From sequence record OM386658.1: a stretch of 64,000 nt of DNA; one strand, written 5' to 3'. Positions 16,155-52,424 of the stretch are shown here, in pieces. Positions within the stretch are counted from its first letter, which is position 1. Every line of letters begins with the position of its first letter. Position numbers and translations under genes: made by a program. Source of the stretch: Escherichia phage vB_EcoM_ESCO32. A model generated the notes under the pieces. It was given only the letters and a program-made list of their open reading frames with translations, was not told the DNA's origin and searched no databases.

Positions 16155-16168
16155 TCTTTATTCCTCAC

Positions 16169-16614: not shown

Positions 16615-16952
16615 TATAAAACTCCGTACTCTGGTTCAATATTATGCTTACGACAAATGGCATCCCAACGCTCATTACCAAAACTTCTTCCATGTAGTGC
16701 ATCGTATGCGAAATGTTCTGCCAACCACATTACTACACCATCTGGTTCAGTGTCAAGCGGAATTCGAAACTCTCGATCATAACGCATACGGAGAACAAAC
16801 TCATTACCGTCTTCCAGCAGGTGCATATGACTTTTAGCTCGTGATGCCAAATCGAAGAAAGGAGGTTCATCGTTCCAAACGTGACGCTCAACTTCAACAC
16901 CATGATCAACTACCAAAGTGGCAATTACTTCTCTCATTTCTTTACTAAACAT
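16614..16952 (-). CDS. hypothetical protein (112 aa)
   Basis: ORF track; ATG. Confidence 0.55.
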   Translation of the reverse strand: MFSKEMREVIATLVVDHGVEVERHVWNDEPPFFDLASRAKSHMHLLEDGNEFVLRMRYDREFRIPLDTEPDGVVMWLAEHFAYDALHGRSFGNERWDAICRKHNIEPEYGVL

Positions 16953-22583: not shown

Positions 22584-22591
22584 GGGGAAAT

Positions 22592-23068: not shown

Positions 23069-23069
23069 A

Positions 23070-34250: not shown

Positions 34251-34259
34251 GGAGAAAGT

Positions 34260-34466
34260 ATGGCAGGTGTTTTAGCAGTATTAGGTTGTTTTATTGTTGT
34301 GTTTTTGATTGTGTTAATCCCTAGTTGGCTACTGCTTTTAGCATACAACTATATGATTGACATTATCGGCTTAGACTGGCATCATGTTCCTGTAACGTTT
34401 TGGAGTGTAGTCTGTGTGACGTTCATTCTTGCGGTACTTCGTGGTATCTTTCAATCTAACAAATAA
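34260..34466 (+). CDS. small membrane protein (68 aa)
   Basis: ORF track; two hydrophobic helices. Confidence 0.5.
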   Translation: MAGVLAVLGCFIVVFLIVLIPSWLLLLAYNYMIDIIGLDWHHVPVTFWSVVCVTFILAVLRGIFQSNK

Positions 34467-34480
34467 GAGAGGATTTTTAT

Positions 34481-34729
34481 ATGCGTAAAGTAAATGTTGA
34501 AGTGCTTGAAAAATTTAGAAACACTCGTGATTGTACTATCGGCAAGGTTTACGAGGCTATTCTCCTTGAAGATGGAGATCAAGTTCCTGCCCCGTATCAC
34601 GCCTTTAATGGTCAAATCAGCAAAGTGGAAGGTGGTCTTGCTATTTGCTTTATTGATGACGTAGGTGATGCTGTAGCTTTCCCTGTCATTAACAAAGAAG
34701 ATAAACTTAAAATTACAGAACTGAACTAG
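34481..34729 (+). CDS. hypothetical protein (82 aa)
   Basis: ORF track; AGAGAGGA RBS. Confidence 0.55.
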   Translation: MRKVNVEVLEKFRNTRDCTIGKVYEAILLEDGDQVPAPYHAFNGQISKVEGGLAICFIDDVGDAVAFPVINKEDKLKITELN

Positions 34730-34788
34730 TTGACTTTCTTTAAAAACAGTTTATAGTATAAGACATAGAGCGGAGGATTGTCCTCCGC
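34730..34788 (+). promoter_or_regulatory. promoter plus leader stem-loop cassette (plus-strand copy) upstream of terC
   Basis: TTGACT-16 bp-TATAGT then CATAGAGCGGAGGAttgTCCTCCGC; same architecture as the minus-strand early cassettes. Confidence 0.55.
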
Positions 34789-34806
34789 ATTAAAGAGGAG
34801 AAAAGA

Positions 34807-35784
34807 ATGCAACTGGGTTTCCCAATTATTGATGTGGTTGTTTTAGTGGGTATTTTAGTCTTGTCGATTTGTATTGACTTCTTTGGACACAGAGAAAACA
34901 AAGAAATTTCATTTAAATCTGCAATTGGCTGGTCAATTTTCTGGATTGGGGTATCATTAGCCTACTATGGTTTTGTATACTTCCAACACGGTGCTGATTT
35001 TGCGAGCTTGTTCTTGAGTGGGTATGTGTTGGAGAAATCTCTTTCTGTAGATAACTTAGTAGTATTTGTAGCAGTATTCGCAAGTTTTGGTATTAAAAGC
35101 ACACACTTGCAGCACAAGATTCTACTTTGGGGTATTGCAGGTGCGATTGTCTTCCGAGGTGTGTTTGTAGCAGTAGGTACTTACTTGTTGAGTTTGGGCT
35201 GGTATGTTAATATCTTCTTCGGTGCTGTCATCCTTTTCTGTGCGGCTAAAATGGTATTCGCTGGAGATAATGATGCAGAAGTTGATTACTCTAAACACTG
35301 GGCTACTCGCATTGTTCGTAAGCTGTTCCCTGTATCTGATCAGATGGATGGTGAGAAGTTCTTCACAATCAAAAATGGTGTTCGTGTAGCAACTCCGGCT
35401 CTGGTTTGTGTGTTTGTAATGGAAATGGTTGACGTAATCTTTGCAGTAGACTCTGTTCCAGCAGTAATTGCAGTGACACAAGAACCTCTGCTGGTGTTCT
35501 CTTCGATGCTCTGTGCAATCTTAGGTTTACGTGCTCTGTTCTTTGTTCTTAGTGTTGCACTGAAGTATTTGGTTCATCTGGAGAAAGCAGTTATCGTAGT
35601 CCTGGTGTTTGTGGGTGTAAAACTGATGTATCACCCGTTTGCAGAAACTCTGCACGCAAAAGTGAGTTTCCTGCCAGCACACATTGACCCGACGATCAGT
35701 ATGTATATTGTGTTAGGTACTCTTGGGCTGGGTGTTCTTGCAAGTTTAATCTTCCCTGAAAAAGAAGACCAGGCTGTTGCTTAA
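34807..35784 (+). CDS. terC: TerC-family integral membrane protein
   Basis: ORF track 325 aa; multiple TM helices; TerC-type motifs LEKSLSVDNLVVFVAVF and VDVIFAVDSVPAVIAV. Confidence 0.85.
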   Translation: MQLGFPIIDVVVLVGILVLSICIDFFGHRENKEISFKSAIGWSIFWIGVSLAYYGFVYFQHGADFASLFLSGYVLEKSLSVDNLVVFVAVFASFGIKSTHLQHKILLWGIAGAIVFRGVFVAVGTYLLSLGWYVNIFFGAVILFCAAKMVFAGDNDAEVDYSKHWATRIVRKLFPVSDQMDGEKFFTIKNGVRVATPALVCVFVMEMVDVIFAVDSVPAVIAVTQEPLLVFSSMLCAILGLRALFFVLSVALKYLVHLEKAVIVVLVFVGVKLMYHPFAETLHAKVSFLPAHIDPTISMYIVLGTLGLGVLASLIFPEKEDQAVA

Positions 35785-35790
35785 TTCATT

Positions 35791-35813
35791 AAGCCCCTTC
35801 GGGGGCTTTATTG
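35791..35813 (+). terminator. rho-independent terminator
   Basis: AAGCCCCttcgGGGGCTT followed by TATTG. Confidence 0.55.
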
Positions 35814-35823
35814 AGGTGATCTG

Positions 35824-36030
35824 ATGGTGGTTTTACGTGTTCTTTGGATTCTGTTTGAAAATATTTGTTTTGCTCTAGGGTTGTTTTGTTTGATTTTTAT
35901 CTTGACAACATATATTGATAACCATACAATTACTATCAACAGGAACGGAGAACAGATGTATTGTTTCTCTAGGGATTTTAAAAATTGTGTTGAGATTTTA
36001 AATGAGAGGGTTACAAATGAAAAACATTAA
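35824..36030 (+). CDS. possible small membrane protein (68 aa)
   Basis: ORF track; GAGGTG RBS; hydrophobic N-terminus. Confidence 0.35.
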   Translation: MVVLRVLWILFENICFALGLFCLIFILTTYIDNHTITINRNGEQMYCFSRDFKNCVEILNERVTNEKH

Positions 36031-36607
36031 ATCTTTTATTGTTGCAGTTGTTTTAGGTAGTGCATTGCTGGTAGGTTGTGATGATTCTGAAAATGTACAA
36101 AATCAACGTTACCAACAAACACCAAATCAGATGGTAGATGAACAATATGTAAATCAGCCTGCACCTCAAGTTGTTCAAGCAGCACCTGCACAACCTTCAA
36201 CAGTTGTTGTGCAAGGAGGCGGCAGTGGTTCTTCTGGCGTAGGTGAGTTTGCTACAGGTATGCTTCTTGGTCATATGTTGAGTGGTAATAGTGGCGGTGG
36301 TGGTTATAGAGATGGCGGTAGCAATACAACAATTATCAATAACAACGCTGCTCCTACAACTAATAGTAAAGCATATACAACACAAAAGCATAGGTTTTAT
36401 GATAAACAAGGGAATACATATACAACCACTAAACAAAACACAATTAAGCAGCAAAGTGTACAAACGTATTCACGCCCATCAACAACAAAAGTGAATAGTG
36501 ATTACTCTGCTCGTAAGTCTTACTCAAGTCCTATTAGCTCTTATAGTAAGTCTTCGAAAAGTTATTCTTCGTCGAAACGTAGTTTTAGTAGCTCACGTCG
36601 TCGTTAA
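36017..36607 (+). CDS. lipoprotein with Ser/Tyr/Lys-rich low-complexity tail
   Basis: ORF track frame 36002..36607; start at MKNIKSFIVAVVLGSALLVGC (lipobox LVGC); C-terminal SYSKSSKSYSSSKRSFSSSRRR. Confidence 0.6.
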   Translation: MKNIKSFIVAVVLGSALLVGCDDSENVQNQRYQQTPNQMVDEQYVNQPAPQVVQAAPAQPSTVVVQGGGSGSSGVGEFATGMLLGHMLSGNSGGGGYRDGGSNTTIINNNAAPTTNSKAYTTQKHRFYDKQGNTYTTTKQNTIKQQSVQTYSRPSTTKVNSDYSARKSYSSPISSYSKSSKSYSSSKRSFSSSRRR

Positions 36608-36642
36608 TAATTTAATACAGATTAAATAAGAAGGAGAAACAG

Positions 36643-37494
36643 ATGAAACTAGAAGTTGGTAAAGTGTATCGCCTGGAAGGTTGGATCTTTAATCAAGAAA
36701 TTCTTGAGAAGAATAAAGATGGTTTTGAGTTTGTTGGTACTACCAAGGAAAGTATGCACAATGACGAATACTGTAAATTCGTTGGTAAAAATACAGGTCA
36801 AGAACAATTTTGCTTTAAGAGCGCAATCGGTGATTATGCTTCTGTAATGCCAACACCAGAAAAGACTTCGAAGCAATATACTGTCTTTGGTGTAAAACTT
36901 GAAGAACTTGTAGAACACCCACGTTTTGAAGAGTTCAAGGTTGCTGCAATGCGCAAGCATTCTGAAATTAAAATACATAATTTGTTTGATTTAGAAGATC
37001 GGTTTGATATCTTTATGTATGATCGCAGGGAAAAGCATTTTGATGCAACGACTTCAAAATTTGCTGCAACAGAGGATATTAAAATCCTTGATGTTGATAC
37101 CTTTCTTGAGAGTGTATCGTTTGTATTCATTCCTAAATACAAAAAACGTAGTGATCATAAACGTGTGAAAGGAACTCCTCGTAAAAAACGTACTGTAAAC
37201 AAAGCAACTTTGCACTTCACTTCTGGTGATAAATATACTCTCAAAGGGTTTGAAAGTGTTTTGTATGATGCTGGAACGGGTAATATCAAGTTTATCATTA
37301 AGGCAACCTACAAAGGTACGGTATTGCACGAAGAGGCTGTTACACTACCTGTATTCGATATCTCTCGTGTTGAGGTACGGGGTGTTAAAGAGTCCTTCGA
37401 TCTGGATTTCTTAACCGCTAATGATACTGGTTATGTTAATCTGGAAGCAGATGGAGCATTTATTACTACAAATTATTTAGATATGTTTGTTTAA
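36643..37494 (+). CDS. hypothetical protein (283 aa)
   Basis: ORF track; AAGGAGAAA RBS. Confidence 0.65.
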   Translation: MKLEVGKVYRLEGWIFNQEILEKNKDGFEFVGTTKESMHNDEYCKFVGKNTGQEQFCFKSAIGDYASVMPTPEKTSKQYTVFGVKLEELVEHPRFEEFKVAAMRKHSEIKIHNLFDLEDRFDIFMYDRREKHFDATTSKFAATEDIKILDVDTFLESVSFVFIPKYKKRSDHKRVKGTPRKKRTVNKATLHFTSGDKYTLKGFESVLYDAGTGNIKFIIKATYKGTVLHEEAVTLPVFDISRVEVRGVKESFDLDFLTANDTGYVNLEADGAFITTNYLDMFV

Positions 37495-37562
37495 TACTTA
37501 ACTTGTGTTATGATGGTGGTACAGAGGTATCACCATTTACTAAAGAATATGGAGGAAAATGA

Positions 37563-38666
37563 ATGTCCAGTCCTTTTATCAGTGCCGTAAAAAGCAAACC
37601 GTCTGAAATGAGTGTATTCACGGCAACAACAGAAAAAAGTAAGTCTTTGTTTGCTCCAAGTGCTATGGATGCAAGCCCTGTATATGCCCCTGCTGTTGCA
37701 CGACCTGTACAAATGCTGCCTCCAATGTCTCGTGAAGAGATTGAACAAGTTGGTGCTGATGCAGGACTTACTCTTCGTAACCTTAATGCTGAAGTGCTTA
37801 AACACCAACGTTCATCTCAGGGGGATGAAATGAGTGAACGTTTAACTGCACTTATTAAGCAAGCAAAGCAACTTGATCCTAACTCTATTAAACAATCTAA
37901 AGGCTTAGGTAAACTAGTTAAGAAAGTATTAGGTATGAAAGAAGATTTGTTTGGTGAATTTGACACCATCAATAATCGTATTGAAGGTTTGGTAAAGACA
38001 CTACAAACAGATTTGAAAAAAGAAGAAGATTCTTTACGATATCTGCAACGTTTAGAAGAGGCTATTGCAAAATATGCTCTTAGCTTAAACAGGGATATAG
38101 AGCTTCTAACAGCTACTTATGAAAAAGAAGAAGTTCGCCTTAATACACTACCTGAAAATGAAGTAGAAGAACGTCAACGTACTCGTGATACTATGGATCT
38201 GCTTGAAATTCGTATTGCAGACCTGAAAGCCTTGCGTTTACTGTGTGTTCAGATGGGGCCACGTGTACAAAGTATGCAGAAAGTATCTGCAAGTTTGATG
38301 CGATCAGCCCGTAATATTGTGAATAATGTTATTCCTGCTTACTCTGCAAACTTTTCTATGTATATTGAAAGTCTACGCCAGAAGAAAGCAGCAGATACAC
38401 AGAACAATGTACTGAATGAGTTTAATGCTGCTATTGCAATGGGTAGTGATCTGGCTGCACAAAACCAAATTGAAGCTACACAACTTGCTAATCGTCAAGT
38501 ATTGGATATTGAGACATTACGTCGCGATCAAGAAAACTTAGTTAAAATGTTGGAAGAAACTAATCGGATCAACACTGAAGCCCGTGCTGCTCGTATTGAT
38601 TACATTCAGGAAGTGCAATCTCTTGAAGATGGTATGATTCAAACTGTTAAACGTGGTCTACTTTAA
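37563..38666 (+). CDS. telA: TelA-like (toxic anion resistance family) protein, tentative
   Basis: ORF track 367 aa; long alpha-helical protein of TelA size in a TerC/TerD neighbourhood; assignment rests mainly on context. Confidence 0.5.
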   Translation: MSSPFISAVKSKPSEMSVFTATTEKSKSLFAPSAMDASPVYAPAVARPVQMLPPMSREEIEQVGADAGLTLRNLNAEVLKHQRSSQGDEMSERLTALIKQAKQLDPNSIKQSKGLGKLVKKVLGMKEDLFGEFDTINNRIEGLVKTLQTDLKKEEDSLRYLQRLEEAIAKYALSLNRDIELLTATYEKEEVRLNTLPENEVEERQRTRDTMDLLEIRIADLKALRLLCVQMGPRVQSMQKVSASLMRSARNIVNNVIPAYSANFSMYIESLRQKKAADTQNNVLNEFNAAIAMGSDLAAQNQIEATQLANRQVLDIETLRRDQENLVKMLEETNRINTEARAARIDYIQEVQSLEDGMIQTVKRGLL

Positions 38667-38679
38667 GGAGAAATATATT

Positions 38680-38886
38680 ATGAATATTAAAATTTACAAA
38701 CTGTCTGGTTCTATGATCGCTGTCCAGTACGACAATGAAGATCGTTATGTTCTCCTCCAGGATGCTTGGTTAGATGATCCTAATGTATTTACTGTCCTGC
38801 GAGAACTACGTTCTGTCTATACCTATTCTTCTAAAGATGGTTTTGATAGTTCAACGATGGAATTGGTAAAAGAGGAGAATGTGTAA
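38680..38886 (+). CDS. hypothetical protein (68 aa)
   Basis: ORF track frame 38653..38886; start at ATG with AAGGAGAAA RBS. Confidence 0.5.
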   Translation: MNIKIYKLSGSMIAVQYDNEDRYVLLQDAWLDDPNVFTVLRELRSVYTYSSKDGFDSSTMELVKEENV

Positions 38887-39086
38887 TGAATAAAGATATT
38901 CACTTAACTCGTGAAGAATTACAAACCATTATGGAAGATGCTTTCATTGATGGTTGGAAACAAGGTCAAGAGTCAGATTGGTATGATGCCGAAGACTTTT
39001 TGTATTATCATATGACTGCACCTGTAGACGAGCAAACACACTCTGAAACAACTTTGGCTATAATTGATCTTAAGGCTGGTGTATAA
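38886..39086 (+). CDS. hypothetical protein (66 aa)
   Basis: ORF track; TAATG coupling; contains LTREELQTIMEDAFIDGWKQG motif shared with next gene. Confidence 0.5.
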   Translation: MNKDIHLTREELQTIMEDAFIDGWKQGQESDWYDAEDFLYYHMTAPVDEQTHSETTLAIIDLKAGV

Positions 39087-39649
39087 TGGGATGTTTTAGT
39101 TTCTTGTGCAAAGAATCTGGTAATGCTGCTCTTTCTACCTCTTTCGATGGCTCTCCTTGCTACCTATTTCTTTTGAAAGGTGGTAAAGTTGTTGAAGAGA
39201 TGTATGGCAATTATGATAGCTATGGTAGTGTTTTCTCTAACGAAGAAGATAAACATGGCAATCGTAAAAGATTCAAGTGGTCTATGTCTTGGGAAGAAGT
39301 TTGTAATTTGATGTTCTCTTCCGATCTTGGAGATGGGATTGCTCTGGTATTAGAAGAGCACTTTACAGGCGAGATCCCAACAGAAAGATCTGAAGAAGAT
39401 CCTAACCAGGGTTGGGGTGATGGGGAAGAAGATCCAGATTGCTTCTTCAGCACTGAAAATAATAAATTTAAATGTGTTGACAATCCTTACCACAAAGTGC
39501 ATAATACTTGCATTGAGACAGAAGAAGACTCAAAGCTAGAAATTGAAGATGATTTAGTTGTAACTATCTCTTTAAACGAGTTGCAAAAAATCACTAGAGA
39601 GGCTTTCTATTTAGGTTGGAAAGTAGGTAAAGGAGGAGATAGTGCTTAA
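39086..39649 (+). CDS. hypothetical acidic protein (187 aa)
   Basis: ORF track; C-terminal LNELQKITREAFYLGWKVG repeats the motif of the preceding gene. Confidence 0.55.
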   Translation: MGCFSFLCKESGNAALSTSFDGSPCYLFLLKGGKVVEEMYGNYDSYGSVFSNEEDKHGNRKRFKWSMSWEEVCNLMFSSDLGDGIALVLEEHFTGEIPTERSEEDPNQGWGDGEEDPDCFFSTENNKFKCVDNPYHKVHNTCIETEEDSKLEIEDDLVVTISLNELQKITREAFYLGWKVGKGGDSA

Positions 39650-39911
39650 ATTTAATATCAAAGACGACAAATCAGATGAACCTAAATGTTTTGGAGAACT
39701 TGACGTAGGTGATACATTTGTATATTATGTTGCCTATCAAGATTCTGGTTTAGATACATTCAGAAATTTAGTGTTTATTAAGGTTAATACAAACCAAGCA
39801 ATGTGTCTGAACGGTTCGCAAAGAGGTCAACTTAGCTGTATTTCGTATGATACAGAAATGGTAGAAGTGGATTTAGAAGTTACTAACATTACACTCAGAA
39901 AGGAGAAATAA
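39642..39911 (+). CDS. hypothetical protein (89 aa)
   Basis: ORF track; GTG start with AAAGGAGGAG RBS. Confidence 0.45.
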   Translation: MLKFNIKDDKSDEPKCFGELDVGDTFVYYVAYQDSGLDTFRNLVFIKVNTNQAMCLNGSQRGQLSCISYDTEMVEVDLEVTNITLRKEK

Positions 39912-39912
39912 T

Positions 39913-40707
39913 ATGTCCAATAAAATCAGTCTTAAAAAACGTCAAGAAACTCTTACCGTATCTCTGCGTAAGAAAAAGATTAACGATGTTGTTCTTCGTG
40001 TCGGTAGTGCCTTAGATATTTCGGGTAGTATGTGTGAGCTGTATCGTGATGGCACTGTCAGTGATTTTGTAGGTAAGCTACTGCCGTTTGGTATGAAGTT
40101 TGATGATAATGCACAGATTGACATGTGGGCTTTCAATAGTTCTTCTTTTGAACTGCCTCCTGCAACGGCTGATGTATATGATGATTATGTCGGCTCTTGT
40201 ATGTCTAATGTTTGCATCAATGGTGGTACAGCTTATGCTCCAGTAATGCAAGAGATCTATGATACATACTTCGGTAGTGTACCTATGAAAAATATTACAC
40301 GCGAAGTCGTTGAGTATGAAGAAGTTCCGGCTAAGGGTTTCCTTGCTAAACTAACTGGTAAAAAAGAACGTGTAGAAGTTACACGTACTGTTGTAGAACA
40401 GGTTGTAGATACTGATGCACAAGTTGATCGTACTCCTGCAATGATTTTCTTCCAAACTGACGGGGAGAACATGGATACTTCAGCAGTACGTAGTTTGCTG
40501 AACAAACACCGCAACACTCCTGTTTACTGGTTTATGGTTGGTGTAGGTAATGCAAACTTTAAATTCCTGAAAGACTTGGCAAAAGAATACGATAACGTTG
40601 ATTTTATCGGTATTGCAGATTTGTCCTTGTCTGACGAAGAACTTTACGATAAACTGCTATCCGAAGAGTTTGGCGAGTGGGTTAAAAAATTTGGAGCAAA
40701 AGCGTAA
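39913..40707 (+). CDS. von Willebrand factor A domain protein (TerY-like)
   Basis: ORF track 264 aa; MIDAS-type DISGSM ... TDGEN; N-terminal ISLKKRQETLTVSL resembles the TerD N-terminus. Confidence 0.65.
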   Translation: MSNKISLKKRQETLTVSLRKKKINDVVLRVGSALDISGSMCELYRDGTVSDFVGKLLPFGMKFDDNAQIDMWAFNSSSFELPPATADVYDDYVGSCMSNVCINGGTAYAPVMQEIYDTYFGSVPMKNITREVVEYEEVPAKGFLAKLTGKKERVEVTRTVVEQVVDTDAQVDRTPAMIFFQTDGENMDTSAVRSLLNKHRNTPVYWFMVGVGNANFKFLKDLAKEYDNVDFIGIADLSLSDEELYDKLLSEEFGEWVKKFGAKA

Positions 40708-40714
40708 AAAACGC

Positions 40715-40742
40715 TTGACTTTGTAGAAAAGATTAGTAAAAT
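40715..40742 (+). promoter_or_regulatory. sigma70-type promoter upstream of terD
   Basis: TTGACT-16 bp-TAAAAT. Confidence 0.45.
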
Positions 40743-40779
40743 AGACAACGTAAATTAACAACAAAGGAGATAATAAATT

Positions 40780-41376
40780 ATGACTCAGAAAATTTCCCTG
40801 AAAAAAGGTTCTAGCGAAAAAGTTTCTCTGAAAAAGATTGCACCAGCACTGAAACGCATTCGTCTGGAATTCTCTTGGAAATCTAACGAAAAACTGGATC
40901 TGGATGTTAGTGCTCTGATTTGCCGACACAATGCATCTGGTCTGCCGGAACTGTTGTCTCCTCGCCACCTGGTATGCTACGCACAGAAATTTGATCCTGA
41001 ACGTTCTACTTTTGCAGGTGAAGATGTTCGTGACGGTGTAGGACAAATGGAGCAGATTGATGTTACACTGGATAATATCTCTGCTGAAGCACAGGAAATT
41101 GCATTCGTAATCACTATTGATGACGAAACGGGTAAGAAACGCCTTGGTCACGCTACCGAAGGTTTCCTTAAAATCTTCGATGATGAACGTAACGTTGAAC
41201 TGCTGGATTTTGACTTCTTGGCTCCAGAACTTGCAGGTAATACCATTTGCCACGTTGCCTCCCTGGTGCGGGAAGATAGCGAATGGAAACTGAAAGCATA
41301 TGGTGTAGGTAAAGCTGGACTTGACATTTATGATGTAGTTAAAGCGTTTGGCGCTGGCGACGATTGGTTCGAGTAA
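40780..41376 (+). CDS. terD: TerD-family tellurium-resistance/stress protein
   Basis: ORF track 198 aa; ISLKKGSSEKVSLKK ... KLDLDVSALIC ... FVITIDDE ... EDSEWKLKAYGVG aligns by eye with E. coli TerD. Confidence 0.85.
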   Translation: MTQKISLKKGSSEKVSLKKIAPALKRIRLEFSWKSNEKLDLDVSALICRHNASGLPELLSPRHLVCYAQKFDPERSTFAGEDVRDGVGQMEQIDVTLDNISAEAQEIAFVITIDDETGKKRLGHATEGFLKIFDDERNVELLDFDFLAPELAGNTICHVASLVREDSEWKLKAYGVGKAGLDIYDVVKAFGAGDDWFE

Positions 41377-41384: not shown

Positions 41385-41408
41385 AGCGCCCTTCTGGGCG
41401 CATATTTT
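41385..41408 (+). terminator. rho-independent terminator
   Basis: AGCGCCCttctGGGCGC followed by ATATTTT. Confidence 0.55.
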
Positions 41409-41428: not shown

Positions 41429-42031
41429 ATGGGTATTACTTTAGAAGGTCAAAAACTTATTCGCAGCGGTAATTTTCTTGTGGATATTGACAACAATGAA
41501 GATTATGCTTTAGAAGTTAGTGATGTACTGTTTAATGCTTTGCAGTCTGGTTTCAATTTTGAAGTTTATGAAGTAATCCGTGGAACTAAACTCAGAGAAA
41601 CCCTTGGATCAACTAGTGATGTTTATTCTGCGATCTGGCAATATTTCGGGTTAATGGATGGTAAGACATACCTTACTGATAGTTATTCTGAAGATGTTGT
41701 TTATCTTGATATGGAAGAGTTTCGTCGTCTGTTCAAAAGTGAAGAAAATGAAGAAGAGGGTGAACTTTTTGAAGGAATTACTCTCGAAGGTAATGTTGAA
41801 ATTGTGTATAAAGCAGGAAAAACATTCCACTTGCGTGAAAACGGTAAAGCAAAAGTTGATTTTGTAAACAAGACAGTAACAACTGAACATAATTATCTTA
41901 AAGATGGTCAACCAGCTTTTGAACGTGTAACAATTAAATTTAAAGTATTGTCTGCACTAGTTACGGATCAAGAACGTATTGATTTTGTAGAAGATGGTGT
42001 AGTAACTCATACAAAGGTTTACAACATCTAA
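41429..42031 (+). CDS. hypothetical protein (200 aa)
   Basis: ORF track; AGAGGAGAAAA RBS; followed by GC hairpin AGAGGGGGgataaTCCCCCTC. Confidence 0.65.
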   Translation: MGITLEGQKLIRSGNFLVDIDNNEDYALEVSDVLFNALQSGFNFEVYEVIRGTKLRETLGSTSDVYSAIWQYFGLMDGKTYLTDSYSEDVVYLDMEEFRRLFKSEENEEEGELFEGITLEGNVEIVYKAGKTFHLRENGKAKVDFVNKTVTTEHNYLKDGQPAFERVTIKFKVLSALVTDQERIDFVEDGVVTHTKVYNI

Positions 42032-43382: not shown

Positions 43383-43946
43383 ATGATATTTCACATAACT
43401 CCCTATCTTTCTGGAGATATTGGAAAAGGTATCAATGACACAATAAGTGTCTTACCAGAAGATAGTTGGATTTGCCTAAGAGACATTGATACAATGTTTC
43501 TTCTTCCAGAACAACCTGCTTGGCTGGAATCAATAGTCCGTTCAAATCCTGATTTTGATGTTCTTGGTGCATCTTGTAATAGATTGGGATCAACATATCA
43601 ATTATTTAATAATGAAAGAAGTGAAGATCCAAATATATTACACCACATTGAGATTGCAAAAAGAGCACATCTAGAATGGGGAAACTCAATAGAGGAAGTA
43701 CCTACAGATGCTATCTTAGCAGGATTCTTTCTTCTCTTTCGTAAGAGCCTGTGGAATGAAATCCCTTTTGAGGAAAGATCAATACAGTTTGATATAATTT
43801 TCTCTAAAGCATTGCACGCTAACAATAAAAGGCTAGGTTTACTACGTGGGTTATATTTATTTCACACATACCGTTTAGGTAATGATGATCCTAGAAAAGC
43901 TATTTCACACCTTTTACATTGTCAAGACATGAATAAAATTATTTAA
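43383..43946 (+). CDS. hypothetical protein, possible glycosyltransferase-associated (187 aa)
   Basis: ORF track; ACGGAGGGAG RBS; precedes three glycosyltransferase-like genes. Confidence 0.55.
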   Translation: MIFHITPYLSGDIGKGINDTISVLPEDSWICLRDIDTMFLLPEQPAWLESIVRSNPDFDVLGASCNRLGSTYQLFNNERSEDPNILHHIEIAKRAHLEWGNSIEEVPTDAILAGFFLLFRKSLWNEIPFEERSIQFDIIFSKALHANNKRLGLLRGLYLFHTYRLGNDDPRKAISHLLHCQDMNKII

Positions 43947-43955
43947 GGAGTTATT

Positions 43956-44642
43956 TTGGAAAATACAAAAATTGGTGTTGGTGTTATTACTGTAGGTAAG
44001 CGTCCTCTTAAAGATTATCTTGTGACTGATCCTAATGCTACTTTTGTTGTACAGTATGATCGGGAACGAAAAGGTGTTGCATATGCTCGTAATGAACTGA
44101 TGAAAAAGTTTTATGATGAAGGGTATGATTACTGGTTTATTTTTGATGATGATTGCTATCCTGTTGTTCAAGGTTGGGAAACATATTTTGTAAAACAAGC
44201 GAAGGAAAATGGTTGGGATTTCTTTGGTATGCCTGAATACTTTAAAGATAAAGTAAAAGGTATTGAAGGGGAAGTGGTTATTTGGGAACTAGGTATGTGC
44301 CAGTTTGGTATGTATTCCCGTGCAGTTATTGAGAAAGCTGGCTATTTCCGCTCATACACCCACGGTTATGGATATGAAGATGCAGAGTGGATTCATCGCG
44401 TTCCACTGGCAGGTTTGAACCGAGGTATTCAAGGCGTGCCATGTCCTATTCGAATTATGGCGTTTATCCATCCTGATGATGTATTTGGAGACAATCCTTT
44501 ACCTTTTGCGAATCTGTCAAAAGAAGAGAAAGAACAGGGTATTGGTGTAAACTGGGAACAATATAAACAATCCCTGGAGGATCTTCGCAATGGTAAAACT
44601 TTTATCTCTTATGAGGAGGCTCAAAAATATGGTAAATCCTAA
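43956..44642 (+). CDS. GT-A-type glycosyltransferase (tentative)
   Basis: ORF track 228 aa; TTG start after AAGGAG; GVGVITVGKRP ... YDYWFIFDDDCYP. Confidence 0.6.
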   Translation: MENTKIGVGVITVGKRPLKDYLVTDPNATFVVQYDRERKGVAYARNELMKKFYDEGYDYWFIFDDDCYPVVQGWETYFVKQAKENGWDFFGMPEYFKDKVKGIEGEVVIWELGMCQFGMYSRAVIEKAGYFRSYTHGYGYEDAEWIHRVPLAGLNRGIQGVPCPIRIMAFIHPDDVFGDNPLPFANLSKEEKEQGIGVNWEQYKQSLEDLRNGKTFISYEEAQKYGKS

Positions 44643-45603
44643 TACTCCTGTACTTAAGTGTGATAATAAGTTAGGCAGTGGTTGTGATTACCATCGTATT
44701 GTAATGCCATTTGCTGGAAATACGTTTAAACCTAAGAAAGACGTTTTAGTTTTTAATAGAGTGTATTCTCGTGGAGCAGACGAGGTTAAACGCCTGAAGG
44801 CACAAGGTGTTAAGATTATTGTTGATTTAGATGACTTTTATTCACTTAATCCTGAACATTATATGGCTGGCGTATTTACTAATCATTCAAAGACTATTGT
44901 AGAGATGGTTAAGTTAGCAGATGTTGTTACTGTAACAACAGAATACCTAGCTTACAAAATTCGTCATTTAAATCGTAATGTTGTCGTAATTAGAAACGCA
45001 CTACCTTACGACGAAGGTCAATTTACTTTGACAAAAGACCGTAATTCTGACACGCCTATTATCTGGGCTGGAGGAGCAAGCCACGAGCCTGATTTATCTC
45101 TTGTAGCTAATACATTTGATGATACACTATTGACAATTGCAGGGTATGAAGTGTATCCTTCTGCACCTGTTGGAAATAACAGTCAGTATCTAACTACTGC
45201 GGAGTGGGTTAAAGTAAAACGTAAAATTCCAAATGCACAGTATAAACCAGCTATTAAAAATTTAGGTGAGTATATGTCTGTGTATGACGGTCACAGTATT
45301 GCAATTGCTCCCCTGGTAGATAATGACTTCAACAACTGTAAAAGCAATTTGAAGATTTTGGAAGCAGGTGCAAAGGGTCTTCCTATTATCTGTTCTCCTG
45401 TGCTGCCGTACTTCAATCCGGTAGATGCAAAGGCTGTTATCTATGCAGACTCTAAAGCATCTTGGCATTATGAAGTTGTCAAGCTAATGAGGAACCCTAG
45501 ATACACAGAAGATCGTGGTATGATGCTTGCAGAACACGTTCGTCTTAATTATAATCTTGCAGATGCCAATGAACTGCGTCGTCAAGTTATTGAAAGTCTT
45601 TAA
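44629..45603 (+). CDS. glycosyltransferase-like protein, paralog A
   Basis: ORF track frame 44590..45603; start at ATG after GAGGAGG; shares AIAPLV.N.FNN.KSNLKILEAGAKGLP...CSP with next gene. Confidence 0.65.
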   Translation: MVNPNTPVLKCDNKLGSGCDYHRIVMPFAGNTFKPKKDVLVFNRVYSRGADEVKRLKAQGVKIIVDLDDFYSLNPEHYMAGVFTNHSKTIVEMVKLADVVTVTTEYLAYKIRHLNRNVVVIRNALPYDEGQFTLTKDRNSDTPIIWAGGASHEPDLSLVANTFDDTLLTIAGYEVYPSAPVGNNSQYLTTAEWVKVKRKIPNAQYKPAIKNLGEYMSVYDGHSIAIAPLVDNDFNNCKSNLKILEAGAKGLPIICSPVLPYFNPVDAKAVIYADSKASWHYEVVKLMRNPRYTEDRGMMLAEHVRLNYNLADANELRRQVIESL

Positions 45604-45614
45604 CAAGGAGTTAT

Positions 45615-46559
45615 ATGCCTAATATTATTCTTGACACACGCGGAAATGAAAAGTATAGTGTATGTGATTTTCATAGAATCATTTTGCCATATAAACGCAA
45701 ACTGACCATTAATCCTAAGCATAATATTTTTGTGTTCAATGGAGTACCAACACGTGGAAAGCCAGGTTTCCTGGCTCTTAAACAACTTGGGTTTAAATTG
45801 GTAATGGATCTGGATGATTCTTTAATTATTCCTGAAGGGCATATGCTTGAAGGATTATTTGAAAATCAAATCCGAGATGACCTAAAATGGTTCCTTGAAA
45901 GAAGCGATCTTGTAACTACAACAACTCCAGCATTAAAGGTTGAATTAAGCCAATACAATGATAATGTACATATTGTGCCTAACGGACTACCTTTTGATGA
46001 AGGACAGTTTGTTCTTACGAAAGATCGTTATTCTAAAAGTCCACTGGTTTGGGCGGGAAGTGAAACACATAAACATGATTTAGCAATTCTTCCTGCTTTT
46101 GGTAAAGAGTTAACTTTATGCGGATTTCGTAGAGATCACGAAGAGTTAAGTAGTGCTCAATGGTTGCAAATTAAAGAAGATATTCAACCAGATTGTGTTT
46201 ATGAAGGTATTCGTCCTTATGAGTGTTATATGGAAGCATACGATGGTCATCAAATCTCCATAGCTCCATTAGTAAATAATCATTTTAATAATGCCAAAAG
46301 TAATTTAAAAATTCTTGAAGCTGGTGCTAAAGGTTTGCCACTCGTTTGTTCGCCACGGGAGAACTATTATACTGAAGAATTTAAAGATCTAATCTTCTTT
46401 GCTGATTCAGTTAAAGAGTGGAAAGATATTGTAGAATACTTAATCGAATCTCCTGACGTTTGTATTGAGAAGGGATTGGCTCTTGCTAAGTATGTAAGAG
46501 ATAACTACAATATTGATGATTTAAATGAAACCCGCAGACTGCTTATCGAGGATTTATAA
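45615..46559 (+). CDS. glycosyltransferase-like protein, paralog B
   Basis: ORF track 314 aa; AAGGAG RBS; SIAPLVNNHFNNAKSNLKILEAGAKGLPLVCSP. Confidence 0.65.
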   Translation: MPNIILDTRGNEKYSVCDFHRIILPYKRKLTINPKHNIFVFNGVPTRGKPGFLALKQLGFKLVMDLDDSLIIPEGHMLEGLFENQIRDDLKWFLERSDLVTTTTPALKVELSQYNDNVHIVPNGLPFDEGQFVLTKDRYSKSPLVWAGSETHKHDLAILPAFGKELTLCGFRRDHEELSSAQWLQIKEDIQPDCVYEGIRPYECYMEAYDGHQISIAPLVNNHFNNAKSNLKILEAGAKGLPLVCSPRENYYTEEFKDLIFFADSVKEWKDIVEYLIESPDVCIEKGLALAKYVRDNYNIDDLNETRRLLIEDL

Positions 46560-46828
46560 TGAACACTTTTGATTTTGAGTATAAACAAGATAATAAAGAA
46601 CCTATTATTGTTGAAGTAGATTACTATTATGAAGAACCTAATCCTTTCTCACGAGAAAGTGATTGGGATTATTATGGTGGCCTTATTGTTGATGGTATTA
46701 GGTTCTATTCTGGTACAAAAGAACTTTTTGATATAGATATTTCCCCATCGGAAATTGTTTACCAATTTAAGAAACATATGGAAGATTTGGAAATGCAATA
46801 TATTATGGAGACAAACGAATCATTTTAG
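46559..46828 (+). CDS. hypothetical protein (89 aa)
   Basis: ORF track; start overlaps upstream stop. Confidence 0.5.
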   Translation: MNTFDFEYKQDNKEPIIVEVDYYYEEPNPFSRESDWDYYGGLIVDGIRFYSGTKELFDIDISPSEIVYQFKKHMEDLEMQYIMETNESF

Positions 46829-49109: not shown

Positions 49110-52100
49110 ATGGGAGCTTTTACTTTCGACATTGAAAGTAACAACTTGCTTAATGACGAAAGTGTAGATTACTTGGCAAGTCCATATCGTTTAAAAGATA
49201 GTTTTGCAATGCACTGTATTGTGTGCGAAAGTCATGATACTGGAGAGATTATTGCTTTCCATGATGGTGATAAATATCTTTTCGATGGTCGTCCGTATGT
49301 TGAGACTGACGGAAAGTATGAATACCGACTGGAGGAATATGAGCATTTAGAATATACCCATTTCCCTCTTAAAGATTTTCCTGATTTTGTAAATGGAACA
49401 GGTAAATTTAAAGGTAATTCAAACTATAAAATTACCAAAGTAGTTGGACATAACATCATTAACTTTGACTTACTGGCAATTAAATTATTTTTTAAACTCA
49501 ACTACAGTATTAAGTACAATACTTGGGGTAATAGTAACATTGAAATTTGTGATACTATGATCTTAAGTAAGACACTAAACCCTGATCGCTTCGGTGGTCA
49601 TAGTCTGGCAGAGTTATCTAAGAAGGCTGGAGGGGATGTTAAAATTGATTTTAGAAAAAACATTCCTGAAACTGAAAGATTTAAAACATTTGCAGCAGAT
49701 ATGCTGTATTACTGTATTTACGATAACAAAGCTAACACCGCAGTGTTCCGTTATTTGATGGAAGAGTGGGGTGATTATAATAAGTGGTCTGAACCATTTA
49801 ACTTAGAACAACGTGTAGCTGATATTATTACACGTCAAGAGCACCGTGGCTTTGCTTTCAATATGAAACAAGCAGAAGATAATATTCGTGATCTGGATGC
49901 TCGAATGGAAGCATGTCGTTTAGAGGCAGAACCTGTGCTACCTCCTAAACCTGCTACTAAAGGTTATTTGAAATCATTCATTCCACCTAAACTACAGTTT
50001 AAAAAGAATGGTGAACCTTCAAGTAACATGATAAAGTTTGCAGAGAAACATTCTGGTGAACTTGTACAAAAAGAAGATGGTTGGTGGCTATTTGCATTAG
50101 GTAAAGAGTTTAAACTACCTATTCCAGCAGAAGAACCTATTTGTGATCCTACAGTACCTGCTACTTTAGACGACACTACACATATTAAAAACTGGTTAGT
50201 TGGTTTAGGTTGGAGTCCATCTGAATATAAAGATAAAGATATCACTCTTAAATCTGGCACTAAGATTAAGAAAGATGAAGCACAGATGGAGAAAGCTATT
50301 CGTGACTATGTTGATCAAACGTTAGCATCTAATTTCTGCCAGGACAGATGTGATCATCTGGAGTGCACACCAGAAACTTTGGAATGGAAACTAAGAGATC
50401 GTATTGCTAAAGCTAAAGGTCGTGGTGTTAAAGTGCTTACTAACCCTTCCTTTACAAAAGGGCAAGAGAAAGATATTTGTCCTAACTTGGAAGCACTAGG
50501 TGAAAAGTTTCCTTATGCTACGCAGATTGTGCAGTATCTTACGTATAAACACCGTAGGAACTCTATTCTAGGGGGTGGTGCTGATTGGGAAGAAGATGAA
50601 GAGGATTATGATAAAGGTTATCTGGCAGCAGTAAGGGCTGATGGTCGTATACCAACTCCTGCTGCAACGTGTGATGCAGCTACGTCTCGTATGAAACATA
50701 GGTTAGTAGCAAATATCCCACGTGTAACATCTCTGTACGGATATGAAATGCGTAACTTATTTGGTGTAGAAGTTCCAAAATACTTCCAAATTGGTTATGA
50801 TTTTGATTCTCTTGAGGCAAAAATAGAATCACACTACTGTGTACCTATGGATGCACAAGCACTAACCCGTAAAGGTTGGGTTGGTTATCACGATCTACAA
50901 GAAGGGGATGAAATCTTAGGATATAACCCAGAAACAGGACTTAAAGAATGGACTAAAGTAAAAGGTAAGGTCTTCTATAAAAATAGTAAGACGTTTGAGA
51001 TTAAAGGAAAATCCCATACTTACCGTGCAACAGCAGATCACCGTTGGTATGTTAATACCCGTAGTAAAGGGAATACTTATGTGCCTAAAGTCAGAACAAC
51101 TGCCGAGCTTTGCACAGGAGATAATATTATTTGTAATGCTCCATTTAACATGGAACAAGATCAGGTAAATAGTTTAACTTCTGTTCAACAAGGTAAATGG
51201 GATGTTCCGTGGGTAGAGCGTGTAGTTAATATGTCTCATGCCGAGCGTGTAGCTTTCTTGGAAGGTTTCTTGATTGCAGATGGTTACTGGCATGAACATA
51301 AACAAAAACCTGTTTGGCGTTGGGCGCAGAACCCAGGTGAACTTTTTGAAGCAGCTTTAACTGCCTCGTACCTGGTGCATGGAGGCAATATCTCTGTAGC
51401 TTTCAATACAAAAGAGCAGAAAGTAAAAGTGGCAACATTGGCTAACCGCTCTCACATTCCTGTTCAAAGTTTGACTATTGAAGAGTGGGGTGTAGAGGAT
51501 GTTTGGTGTCCACAAACAGAACTTGGTACGTGGGTCATGCGTCAGAAAGACTGCATTACCATCACAGGAAACTGTTGGCGGTACGAGCAGGAACCACACG
51601 AATATTGTAATGCTCTATTATTGGAAAAACCTAATGATGTTCATACAATGATGGCTCGACGTATTTCTGACACTATTGGTCGTAAGTTTGAACGAAGCCC
51701 TGCTAAATCTGTTAAGTATGGTATTACTTATGGTGCTCAAGCTGCAAAAGTAGCAAAAACTATAGGTAGTGATATGTATACCGGACAGCTTGTATACGAT
51801 GCTTTCTGGGAAGCTGCAAAACCTCTTGCGCTTCTTAAAGAACGTCTGCATGACTTTTGGGTTAAAACAGGTAAGAAATACATTCTGGGTATTGATGGTA
51901 GGAAAGTACCTACACGATCTGCACACGCAATACTTAACTCTCTGTTCCAGAGTGGTGGTGTTATTTGTGCAAAAAGAGCAATGGTTATCTACGACGATCT
52001 TATCGAAGAAGAAGGATTAGCTGTTGACTTTTTTGTTGATGACTGGAAAAATAAGTCATTCGTTCAACAAATGATTGCATATCACGATGAAGCACAGCTT

Positions 52101-52424
52101 GAAGTAACTCGTGATCTGGTGCATTTTAAATGGTTCTCTAAAGAATCTTTAGGTTGGACTCAAGTTGATGATCCAGAAGAACAAAAGAAAATTGATAAAG
52201 AATGTTTGGATAAAGTTAATGCCTGGAAAGAAGAGGAAGAGAAACGTACTGGCAAGATTTGGGCTAACGTACATGAATCTCCGAAAGGTGGTTGGTTTAC
52301 AGCCTACAGTCGTGCTGGAGAATTAGCATCTATCGCTGTTAATAAAGCTGGTGAGTATTACAATCTTAATGTACCTCTCACTGCTGGTTACGATGTTGGT
52401 AACTCATGGGCCAGTTGTCATTAG
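49110..52424 (+). CDS. family-A DNA polymerase (T7-like) interrupted by an intein
   Basis: ORF track 1104 aa; exo FDIESNNL; motif A DFDSLEAKIESHY; post-intein CWRYEQEPHEY...DVHT parallels T7 pol as recalled; motif B KYGITYGAQ; motif C YHDE. Confidence 0.9.
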   Translation: MGAFTFDIESNNLLNDESVDYLASPYRLKDSFAMHCIVCESHDTGEIIAFHDGDKYLFDGRPYVETDGKYEYRLEEYEHLEYTHFPLKDFPDFVNGTGKFKGNSNYKITKVVGHNIINFDLLAIKLFFKLNYSIKYNTWGNSNIEICDTMILSKTLNPDRFGGHSLAELSKKAGGDVKIDFRKNIPETERFKTFAADMLYYCIYDNKANTAVFRYLMEEWGDYNKWSEPFNLEQRVADIITRQEHRGFAFNMKQAEDNIRDLDARMEACRLEAEPVLPPKPATKGYLKSFIPPKLQFKKNGEPSSNMIKFAEKHSGELVQKEDGWWLFALGKEFKLPIPAEEPICDPTVPATLDDTTHIKNWLVGLGWSPSEYKDKDITLKSGTKIKKDEAQMEKAIRDYVDQTLASNFCQDRCDHLECTPETLEWKLRDRIAKAKGRGVKVLTNPSFTKGQEKDICPNLEALGEKFPYATQIVQYLTYKHRRNSILGGGADWEEDEEDYDKGYLAAVRADGRIPTPAATCDAATSRMKHRLVANIPRVTSLYGYEMRNLFGVEVPKYFQIGYDFDSLEAKIESHYCVPMDAQALTRKGWVGYHDLQEGDEILGYNPETGLKEWTKVKGKVFYKNSKTFEIKGKSHTYRATADHRWYVNTRSKGNTYVPKVRTTAELCTGDNIICNAPFNMEQDQVNSLTSVQQGKWDVPWVERVVNMSHAERVAFLEGFLIADGYWHEHKQKPVWRWAQNPGELFEAALTASYLVHGGNISVAFNTKEQKVKVATLANRSHIPVQSLTIEEWGVEDVWCPQTELGTWVMRQKDCITITGNCWRYEQEPHEYCNALLLEKPNDVHTMMARRISDTIGRKFERSPAKSVKYGITYGAQAAKVAKTIGSDMYTGQLVYDAFWEAAKPLALLKERLHDFWVKTGKKYILGIDGRKVPTRSAHAILNSLFQSGGVICAKRAMVIYDDLIEEEGLAVDFFVDDWKNKSFVQQMIAYHDEAQLEVTRDLVHFKWFSKESLGWTQVDDPEEQKKIDKECLDKVNAWKEEEEKRTGKIWANVHESPKGGWFTAYSRAGELASIAVNKAGEYYNLNVPLTAGYDVGNSWASCH
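50838..51572 (+). mobile_element. intein (245 aa) with LAGLIDADG-type homing-endonuclease motif inside the DNA polymerase
   Basis: starts CVPMDAQALTRKGW (block A), TADHRWY (block B), LEGFLIADGYW (LAGLIDADG-like), ends ITGN followed by +1 Cys; inserted right after polymerase motif A. Confidence 0.7.

Follow-up and report, generated by a model that had tools for sequence, protein, structure and literature searches.

The window analysed here, a stretch of 64,000 nucleotides of Escherichia phage vB_EcoM_ESCO32 (OM386658.1), belongs to a phi92-like myovirus (Justusliebigvirus) and is 99.3% identical to Escherichia phage alia. On the plus strand, positions 43383-46559 hold four glycosyltransferase genes in tandem, two for small GT-A-type enzymes (ORF1, putatively, and ORF2) and two for GT-B paralogs (ORF3 and ORF4), followed by a fifth, small gene:

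ORF1, 43383..43946, plus strand: small soluble GT-A-like (DxD) putative glycosyltransferase of 187 aa
ORF2, 43956..44642, plus strand: GT2/GT7-like glycosyltransferase of 228 aa with a GT-A fold, a TTG start and its DxD motif at D64-D65-D66
ORF3, 44629..45603, plus strand: GT-B glycosyltransferase of 324 aa, paralog of ORF4
ORF4, 45615..46559, plus strand: GT-B glycosyltransferase of 314 aa with a GT4-like fold
ORF5, 46559..46828, plus strand: conserved small protein of 89 aa, very acidic (pI 4.1), its start overlapping the ORF4 stop

ORF1-4 are not new as genes: RefSeq labels all four as glycosyltransferases in genomes 99% identical to the window, and two papers already comment on the 'dTDP glycosylation machinery' of phi92-like phages. 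As a sequence feature the cluster is ordinary. The earlier note had described a glycosyltransferase-like cluster in which a GT-A-like protein with a DDD motif is accompanied by two diverged paralogs, and this description holds: the four consecutive genes were confirmed, the motif is the FIFDDD of ORF2, and ORF3 and ORF4 are 40% identical (E 2e-80). The conserved catalytic-type motifs are intact in all four glycosyltransferases, both paralogs included. All four lack hydrophobic segments and three of them are acidic; a 19-residue Kyte-Doolittle scan found no transmembrane segments in ORF1-5 (maximum 0.8-1.2), and no membrane protein genes lie within the cluster. The NCBIfam search gave no match and PDB sequence searches, with single proteins as well as family profiles, gave spurious matches only. 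The sole plus-strand terminator-like hairpin near the cluster lies upstream, at 41386-41401, and a sigma-70 promoter scan was uninformative (35 sites observed versus 27.4 +/- 5.2 expected).

ORF1 (pI 5.6) matches phrog_14179, annotated 'glycosyltransferase' (E 5e-113), and also the C-terminal part of phrog_26101 (E 5e-24), and has no match in Pfam, NCBIfam or PDB. Its family alignment shows invariant D34-x-D36-T37, N66-R67, H161-x-Y163-R164 and H176, and contains a GT2-like segment (AG.F.LFRK..W....F.E......D) with a conserved C-terminal His. A comparison of the ORF1 and ORF2 families by hhalign gave a probability of 1.4%, and hence no demonstrable common origin.

ORF2 has the features of a GT-A enzyme, namely a single Rossmann-like nucleotide-sugar domain and a DxD metal site, and resembles GT2 wall-polymer enzymes (GlfT2, TarP, TarS and the rhamnosyltransferase RmlT). 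Its 114 family relatives matched Glyco_transf_7C (54), Glycos_transf_2 (41) and, weakly, TAGT (11, best E 1.6e-5). ORF2 itself scored 24.1 bits against Pfam TAGT (PF20691), below the gathering threshold of 27.5 bits and over residues 16-79 of 228 only, the DxD region; membership of TAGT was dropped on account of this score and the GT7C/GT2 character of the relatives. Beyond the enterobacterial clade the relatives are actinophage glycosyltransferases only (351 Mycobacterium phages; 50,697 phage records). One of these is Spartacus gp108, whose N-terminal GT2/GT7C domain is homologous to ORF2 (BLASTP 1e-12, hhalign 99.2%), at an identity of 26% at which the acceptor specificity of a glycosyltransferase is not transferable.

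Both ORF3 and ORF4 show the two Rossmann-like domains of GT-B enzymes, the C-terminal one donor-binding. ORF4 scored 26.9 bits against Pfam Glyco_trans_1_2 (cut-off 25), and its closest solved folds are GT4 enzymes (PglA/PglH-type, PimA, WaaG, WbnH and HepE). ORF3 matched Glyco_trans_1_4 and Glyco_trans_1_2 weakly (14.9 to 17.9 bits, below the cut-off), yet is 40% identical to ORF4; it matches phrog_7162 (E 9e-149) and retains all 15 columns that are invariant in a 36-member family. The start of ORF3 was placed at the ATG at 44629, with GAGGAGG 9 nt upstream, and the RefSeq CDS of its counterpart in alia has equal length; the mechanical frame begins at 44590 and overlaps ORF2.

ORF5 matches phrog_4240 (unknown function, E 8e-35), and in distant relatives a similar gene of 83-89 aa follows the last GT-B gene and precedes the primase/helicase. 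ORF5 may go with the primase and not with the glycosyltransferases, so that its membership of the system is uncertain.

What ORF1-4 use as donors, in which order they act and what they modify is inferred as follows. The four enzymes would form a soluble cytoplasmic glycan-assembly set, transcribed with the replication genes, in which ORF1 and ORF2 would be small metal-dependent GT-A-type enzymes and ORF3 and ORF4 GT4-like GT-B paralogs, and which would attach several sugars in sequence onto a non-DNA acceptor. Host UDP-sugars and dTDP-L-rhamnose from the phage RmlABCD would serve as donors, and the acceptor would most likely be at least one virion protein, comparable to the virion glycosylation of mycobacteriophages (Che8 gp108-110, Corndog and Myrna) that was reportedly described by Freeman et al. 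in 2023. Glycosylation of virion proteins, an option absent from the earlier note, is favoured by the comparative evidence and is our best guess, held with somewhat less than even confidence. The dTDP-rhamnose pathway (RmlABCD) is encoded in the same genome, about 70 kb from the cluster, and has been documented before (PMC7552041). The sets of phage genomes that carry RmlC, ORF2 and ORF4 match one another, each with about 130 members from Justusliebigvirus and Phapecoctavirus, a co-occurrence that is lineage-level and phylogenetically non-independent. Moreover, four glycosyltransferases are more than a single sugar addition needs.

Informative gene contexts were also found outside this phage group. 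An unrelated phage contig of 36 kb (L018) has a gene for an ORF2-like GT-A protein (hhalign 98.3%) directly followed by one for an ORF4-like GT-B protein with the same KSNLKILEAGAKGLP block, and this pair is the start of an operon that continues with genes for small and large terminase, portal, protease and capsid, on the strand opposite to the replication genes. In another locus (L013), the interval from terminase to portal/capsid contains a distant ORF1 homolog along with a GT2 gene, a polysaccharide deacetylase, two Methyltransf_24 genes (a domain also present in Che8 gp108) and a UDP-galactopyranose mutase. In Streptomyces phage KimJongPhill, the genes immediately preceding terminase, portal and capsid include an ORF4 homolog, an epimerase and a methyltransferase. 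ORF1/ORF4 homologs are also part of large sugar cassettes in two further phage loci (L014 and L017), alongside genes for DegT aminotransferase, dehydratase/epimerase, radical SAM proteins and several glycosyltransferases, which makes complex glycans a better fit than base modification. Finally, the right-arm cassette that contains Spartacus gp108 also encodes an ortholog of Che8 gp110 (92% identical); Che8 gp110 is reported to be essential for capsid glycosylation (PMC12363180). This link to Che8 runs via Spartacus gp108, a different glycosyltransferase that other cluster F phages have at this locus and whose own function is predicted.

The solved folds closest to ORF4 are of GT4 enzymes that use lipid-linked or membrane acceptors, and ORF2 is similar to wall-polymer enzymes including RmlT, in line with action on the host envelope. 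ORF1-4 would then work at the inner membrane face, with either the LPS core or an undecaprenyl-linked precursor (of LPS, ECA or the N4-type glycan receptor) as substrate, and the phage's own surface-glycan receptors would be altered or capped during infection, resulting in superinfection exclusion or in progeny that are spared trapping on debris. dTDP-rhamnose is a classic O-antigen precursor, which counts for such a role, and the solubility of ORF1-4 is compatible with it, since GT4 enzymes often bind the membrane peripherally and have no transmembrane segments. The receptors of phi92-like phages include a wecB-dependent surface glycan and the LPS core (PMC8594841; PMC11990801). A strictly lytic phage, however, has little time to export and ligate a new polymer, and no flippase, polymerase, ligase or GtrA/GtrC-type membrane partner was found in or beside the cluster; the head-morphogenesis operon led by the same GT-A and GT-B pair in the 36-kb phage and the actinophage homologs that adjoin capsid genes also speak against it. 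We consider an envelope acceptor unlikely. Host surface polymers were one of the two substrates put forward in the earlier note, and that option is neither strengthened nor excluded by our results.

The other was phage DNA bases, and this option is now disfavoured because no hydroxymethylase was found among the alia ORFs and no TET among the alia proteins scanned, ORF2 is no bona fide TAGT and the phage group is restriction-sensitive. Olsen et al. (2020) are said to have speculated on phage DNA glycosylation as well, the option named first in the earlier note: a hydroxymethylated or otherwise activated phage base, perhaps motif-specific, would be decorated with rhamnose or other sugars. The genome does encode a C5-cytosine methyltransferase (alia gp168), unclustered and about 57 kb from the glycosyltransferase genes. 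A search for a dCMP or dUMP hydroxymethylase beyond the window, of the kind that the earlier note had called for, detected no ThyA-family protein among all 620 alia ORFs of at least 60 aa (phmmer with an E. coli ThyA sequence, best E 0.67), and the sole thymidylate synthase homolog is ThyX-type (alia gp203, Thy1, E 1.9e-9). Likewise, a Tet_JBP or other dioxygenase domain was absent from 24 hypothetical or vaguely annotated alia proteins (136-386 aa) and from the window ORF at 41429-42031; this 200-aa ORF was considered as a hidden dioxygenase and rejected, as it gave only Cupin_3 at E 0.052 and lacks the HxD motif. The TAGT match of ORF2 is sub-threshold, confined to the DxD region and weakly shared by 11 of its 114 relatives. 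ORF4 matched solved GT4-type structures better than those of the T4 enzymes, with no T4 alpha- or beta-glucosyltransferase among the best 50 viral fold matches, and in the 36-kb phage with the same gene pair no base-modification genes were found in the 21 kb examined. The phi92-like phages Bas60-62 were described as 'exceptionally susceptible' to restriction-modification despite their 'putative dTDP glycosylation machinery' (Maffei et al., PMC8594841). DNA as the acceptor is, in our opinion, quite improbable.

We also found a Ter-type module (TelA, TerC, vWA-TerF and TerD with PRTase_3, HAD and Macro) 2-11 kb upstream on the same strand, in an arrangement that is conserved in a distant relative. 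Together with the solubility of all four enzymes, this favours another soluble acceptor, either a host protein, as in effector glycosylation of the EarP or toxin type, or a small molecule, for instance the nucleoside-like product postulated for the Ter/PRTase/HAD module. An ORF4 homolog in Burkholderia that adjoins an intimin/invasin-type adhesin likewise hints at bacterial protein glycosylation. Against this, the cluster is separated from the Ter module by the terminator-like hairpin, an unknown gene, a lysis-type hydrolase and three small ORFs, the gene pair is found without any Ter genes in other phages, and no specific acceptor has positive support. An acceptor of this kind seems very improbable to us.

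Glycosylation of virion proteins has to be reconciled with the position of the cluster, which in this phage lies among early or middle replication genes and was counted against it. The validated Che8 genes are likewise located outside the structural operon of Che8, and the replication-module location is therefore no counter-argument. In the literature searched (the phi92 virion proteomics paper apart) no glycosylated virion protein of phi92-like phages is reported, and for phi92-like and phAPEC8-like phages it yielded nothing on DNA modification or virion glycosylation. No acceptor motif emerged as a candidate; S/T/N-rich C-termini are present in sheath and portal and were considered too weak to use as acceptor sites. 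Glycosylation of the collagen-lysine/BclA type was dropped for the collagen-like tail fibre (58191-60152, minus strand), in which the GXY runs are short, Lys/Asp-rich and not GXT; no lysyl hydroxylase was seen. With more doubt than confidence, we propose that phi92-like and phAPEC8-like coliphages may build an oligosaccharide of their own, probably with rhamnose in it, and coat virion proteins with it, by means of a module of an ORF2-type GT-A and an ORF3/4-type GT-B enzyme that also moves between unrelated phages.

The phi92-like and phAPEC8-like phages are broad-host-range coliphages that are often considered for therapy. If the acceptor is a virion protein, these phages of E. coli and Salmonella, which are isolated widely, would be coated with glycan. 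During therapy such a coat could alter how antibodies recognise the particles, how they are cleared and how stable they are, effects that are reported for mycobacteriophages. The trait could then be traced in metagenomes by the portable GT-A and GT-B gene pair, and virion glycosylation would have its first demonstrated case among phages of Gram-negative bacteria. If DNA or the host envelope is the acceptor, this would imply modification chemistry or an exclusion mechanism of a new kind. Cultured phages exist for the group (phi92, alia and BASEL Bas60-62).

Among known systems, the GtrABC serotype conversion of prophages has in common a phage-encoded change to a host surface glycan. The Gtr proteins, however, are periplasm-acting membrane proteins of temperate phages, whereas ORF1-4 have no hydrophobic segment, the phage is lytic and the cluster contains no integral membrane GtrA flippase or GtrC-type transferase. 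PBCV-1 A064R (a rhamnosyltransferase/methyltransferase acting on the chlorovirus capsid) concerns a eukaryotic host and was a mid-ranked structural match with no sequence-level relationship. ORF1-4 have no sequence similarity to the T4 DNA alpha- and beta-glucosyltransferases (GT72 and GT63, acting on 5-hydroxymethylcytosine), and GT4-type enzymes are the better structural matches; no dCMP hydroxymethylase, dCTPase or ThyA-family enzyme was detected in the alia genome, and the phage group is restriction-sensitive. The TET/5mYOX-associated glycosyltransferases (TAGT) share with ORF2 the GT-A fold and DxD motif, a weak domain match and a C5-cytosine methyltransferase encoded at another site of the genome. 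They differ in that they occur in clusters of methyltransferase, TET and glycosyltransferase, whereas ORF2 is below the Pfam cut-off and no TET/JBP was detected in the scanned proteins.

The mycobacteriophage system (PMC12363180, PMC11256854 and PMC12619734) is among the closest comparisons. Direct homology of ORF1-4 to Che8 gp108, gp109 and gp110 was rejected, since BLASTP and phmmer gave nothing better than E 0.08. The present cluster has no GT25-type enzyme and no methyltransferase, and Che8 lacks a counterpart of the GT-B paralogs ORF3 and ORF4; unlike Che8, the present phage infects a Gram-negative host and encodes a rhamnose pathway. Nevertheless, in both cases several soluble phage glycosyltransferases are encoded outside the structural operon, a Methyltransf_24 component is common to related cassettes in other phages, and ORF2 is homologous to the cassette-mate of a close Che8 gp110 ortholog.

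Four plus-strand ORFs in a row occupy all of 43383-46559, each hitting a PHROG family that carries the label glycosyltransferase (E 1e-79 to 1e-149), which settles at four the cluster of glycosyltransferase-like genes that the earlier note had counted as three or four:

43383-43946, plus strand: ORF1, 187 aa
43956-44642, plus strand: ORF2, 228 aa, TTG start, contains WFIFDDDCYP
44629-45603, plus strand: ORF3, 324 aa as annotated in RefSeq; the ORF call begins at 44590
45615-46559, plus strand: ORF4, 314 aa

ORF3 probably starts at the ATG at 44629, which is preceded by a GAGGAGG site and gives the RefSeq length. The next gene, ORF5 (46559-46828, plus strand), encodes a conserved, very acidic protein (89 aa, pI 4.1, phrog_4240); its start overlaps the ORF4 stop, and in every relative examined it separates the glycosyltransferases from the primase/helicase. 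The region shares 99.3% identity with Escherichia phage alia and 98.8% with phi92, both Justusliebigvirus (Stephanstirmvirinae). Several records named 'Campylobacter phage' (e.g. A145, host given as C. jejuni; MG065645.1) are likewise ~99% identical to these E. coli phages, both in the cluster and in the rml genes, which suggests mislabelled hosts or contaminating coliphages. The gene cluster is already known, having been annotated earlier and remarked on in papers: RefSeq records carry a glycosyltransferase annotation on all four genes, and the record of the BASEL phage EmilieFrey (Bas61) lists two 'putative glycosyltransferases' and two 'putative disaccharide synthases' for the counterparts. 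An experimental study of these enzymes was not found in the literature searched. At the sequence level the cluster is unsurprising, and the functional reading is circumstantial.

The GT-A-like protein with a DDD motif described in the earlier note is indeed ORF2, for which a GT-A fold is predicted (pLDDT 89) and in whose family D64-D65-D66 and Y138-G139-x-E141-D142 (YGYED in ORF2) are invariant. The two paralogs with a common block are likewise real, ORF3 and ORF4 being 40% identical over their full length (E 2e-80) and both containing the block. ORF4 is predicted to adopt a GT-B fold (pLDDT 95), and its model resembles, among predicted viral structures, generic group-1 glycosyltransferases of uncultured phages and giant viruses, with no T-even enzyme in the top 50 matches. 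Because 15 columns are invariant in the GT-B family alignment (n=36, both paralogs included; R21, D67, D68, N123, H152, D155, G170, P218, L219, F224, K228, S229, K232, E235 and Y251), ORF3 and ORF4 both look catalytically competent. The least secure assignment is that of ORF1, which has no match in Pfam, NCBIfam or PDB; across its family D34-x-D36 does not vary, histidines near the C-terminus are conserved and a GT2-like segment is present. Hydrophobic segments are absent from all four proteins, which are acidic except for ORF3 (pI 8.2).

The earlier note named phage DNA bases and host surface polymers as frequent substrates of such enzymes in phages; the identity of the enzymes as glycosyltransferases stands, and a DNA target is improbable. 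It is favoured by the adjoining primase/helicase and PolA genes and by a weak match of ORF2 to Pfam TAGT (E 3.9e-5), but that match is confined to the DxD region and reaches 24.1 bits where the cut-off is 27.5. Searching 1.84 billion representatives with a profile yielded 1556 relatives of ORF2, and among the 114 scanned Glyco_transf_7C (54) and Glycos_transf_2 (41) prevailed over weak TAGT hits (11). ORF2 as a bona fide TAGT was ruled out by the sub-cut-off score together with these relatives, and by sequence it is best classed as a GT2/GT7-like enzyme. The search for a hydroxymethylase in the rest of the genome, done on alia, came out against a DNA target too: the sole thymidylate-synthase homolog is ThyX-type, while the known pyrimidine hydroxymethylases all belong to the ThyA family, and no ThyA homolog was found among alia ORFs of at least 60 aa (phmmer, E. 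coli ThyA as query). No Tet_JBP or other dioxygenase domain was detected in 24 alia proteins of 136-386 aa that are uncharacterised or only loosely annotated, or in the window ORF at 41429-42031, and the C5-cytosine methyltransferase of alia is unlinked to the cluster. Justusliebigvirus-type phages and phapecoctaviruses encode a complete dTDP-rhamnose pathway, for which rhamnosylation of hydroxymethylated nucleotides was speculated (Olsen et al. 2020, PMC7552041). Phi92-like phages were nevertheless found 'exceptionally susceptible' to restriction-modification 'despite a putative dTDP glycosylation machinery' (Maffei et al. 2021, PMC8594841), and this published sensitivity disfavours bulk base modification. 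The evidence against DNA glycosylation is stronger than that for it; sparse, motif-specific modification is still conceivable.

The rhamnose pathway of alia (gp189-192) lies ~70 kb from the cluster, beyond the range of the window. RmlC, ORF2 and ORF4 are distributed alike across ~130 genomes, a co-occurrence at lineage level only. Regions of alia outside the window (3463-4452, 13523-16783, 22340-23311 and 36833-39531) encode the C5-cytosine DNA methyltransferase, RmlABCD and the ThyX-type synthase, and also a ribose-phosphate pyrophosphokinase and nicotinamide phosphoribosyltransferase pair that resembles NAD+ reconstitution pathways.

Several other features of the window were observed. The PolA gene (49110-52424, plus strand) encodes 1104 aa versus 859 aa in alia, with an insertion at ~50841-51572 between 100% identical flanks that is missing from alia and EmilieFrey. 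Cys is the first of the extra 244 residues (578-821), Asn is the last and is itself followed by Cys, and a LAGLIDADG-like motif, FLEGFLIADGY, lies inside; the insertion has no Pfam match at E <= 0.001 and resembles an intein that carries a homing endonuclease. A NADAR-domain protein is encoded at 12773-13324 (minus strand), its alia ortholog gp103 matching the Pfam domain at E 1.9e-36; enzymes of this kind remove ADP-ribose from guanine in DNA, and this one could serve as counter-defence against DarT-type toxins. The tail-fibre gene at 56265-58151 (minus strand) encodes 628 aa versus 939 aa for alia gp033, and the alignment breaks at 56276-56295, skipping ~950 bp of alia; hence this receptor-binding protein varies among phages that are nearly identical elsewhere. 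The lateral tail fibre (58191-60152, minus strand) has several short, GDK/GEK-rich collagen-like G-X-Y runs, e.g. GPKGDKGDKGDKGNTG; it was considered as a glycosylation target and found no support.

Just upstream of the glycosyltransferases, at 32035-41376 (plus strand), lies a tellurite-resistance-type (Ter) stress module with associated genes, an arrangement kept in a distant relative (L007):

32035-32691, plus strand: HAD phosphatase
32684-33541, plus strand: PRTase_3, ComF-like phosphoribosyltransferase
33534-34250, plus strand: Macro domain protein
34807-35784, plus strand: TerC
37563-38666, plus strand: TelA
39913-40707, plus strand: vWA-TerF
40780-41376, plus strand: TerD

We propose that ORF1-4 would work together in the cytoplasm as a glycan-assembly set, building an oligosaccharide on an acceptor other than DNA. 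GT2 enzymes are inverting, and the GT2-like GT-A enzymes would be the more plausible users of dTDP-beta-L-rhamnose, while the GT4-like paralogs probably transfer hexoses or HexNAc from host UDP-sugars; that there are two of them suggests a pair of related linkages or of related acceptors. Remodelling of the envelope has a low probability, though a higher one than a DNA target: the nearest GT4 and GT2 structures act on lipid-linked acceptors and the receptors of phi92-like phages are a wecB-dependent glycan and the LPS core, but the phage is lytic and a membrane partner is absent. Another soluble acceptor, a host protein or a product of the neighbouring Ter/PRTase module, is given slightly less credence than a DNA target, and the remaining probability falls to something else. 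Virion proteins are tentatively preferred, on the strength of the gene contexts of homologs, although at 25-30% identity acceptor specificity is not transferable.

Clustering at 90% identity leaves 57 clusters in the GT-B family, a small number, and most relatives keep the order glycosyltransferases, small acidic ORF, primase/helicase, PolA; more can be learned from the distant occurrences. In an unrelated small phage (L018, a 36-kb metagenomic contig, Logan SRR25068741) an ORF2-like GT-A (hhalign 98.3%) is directly followed by an ORF4-like GT-B sharing the KSNLKILEAGAKGLP block. This pair (9216-10984; the GT-A stop overlaps the GT-B start) heads an operon that contains the small and large terminase, portal, protease and capsid genes and diverges from the replication genes; in that phage it belongs to the head-morphogenesis transcription unit. 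Since it opens a terminase-capsid operon, the GT-A plus GT-B pair is a portable module and behaves as a mobile unit of two genes. In L013 the interval from terminase to portal/capsid contains a distant ORF1 homolog, accompanied by a GT2, a deacetylase, a UDP-galactopyranose mutase and two Methyltransf_24 genes, and in Streptomyces phage KimJongPhill an ORF4 homolog, an epimerase and a methyltransferase are found immediately upstream of terminase, portal and capsid. Other homologs (L014, L017) form part of large sugar cassettes of phages, which also encode DegT aminotransferases, dehydratases, radical SAM enzymes and multiple glycosyltransferases, and a Burkholderia homolog adjoins an intimin/invasin-type adhesin. 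The resulting hypothesis, sharper than before and directly testable, is that of a virion glycan in a Gram-negative phage, with a portable pair of GT-A and GT-B genes as its carrier.

Among the closest known systems is the virion-glycosylation cassette gp108-110 of mycobacteriophage Che8; PMC12363180 describes Che8 gp110 as essential to the glycosylation of the capsid. ORF1-4 show no resemblance to Che8 gp108-110. The location of ORF1-4 in a replication module is no counter-argument, because the validated Che8 genes also sit outside its structural operon. Outside the enterobacterial clade, the relatives of ORF2 among 50,697 phage records are only actinophage glycosyltransferases, including those of 351 Mycobacterium phages, and ORF2 is clearly homologous to the N-terminal domain of gp108 of the cluster F phage Spartacus (BLASTP 1e-12; hhalign 99.2%). 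This different glycosyltransferase lies at the site where Che8 has gp108-110, and two genes downstream of it comes an ortholog of Che8 gp110 (92% identity). Che8 gp108 itself contains Methyltransf_24, as does the L013 cassette that holds the distant ORF1 homolog.
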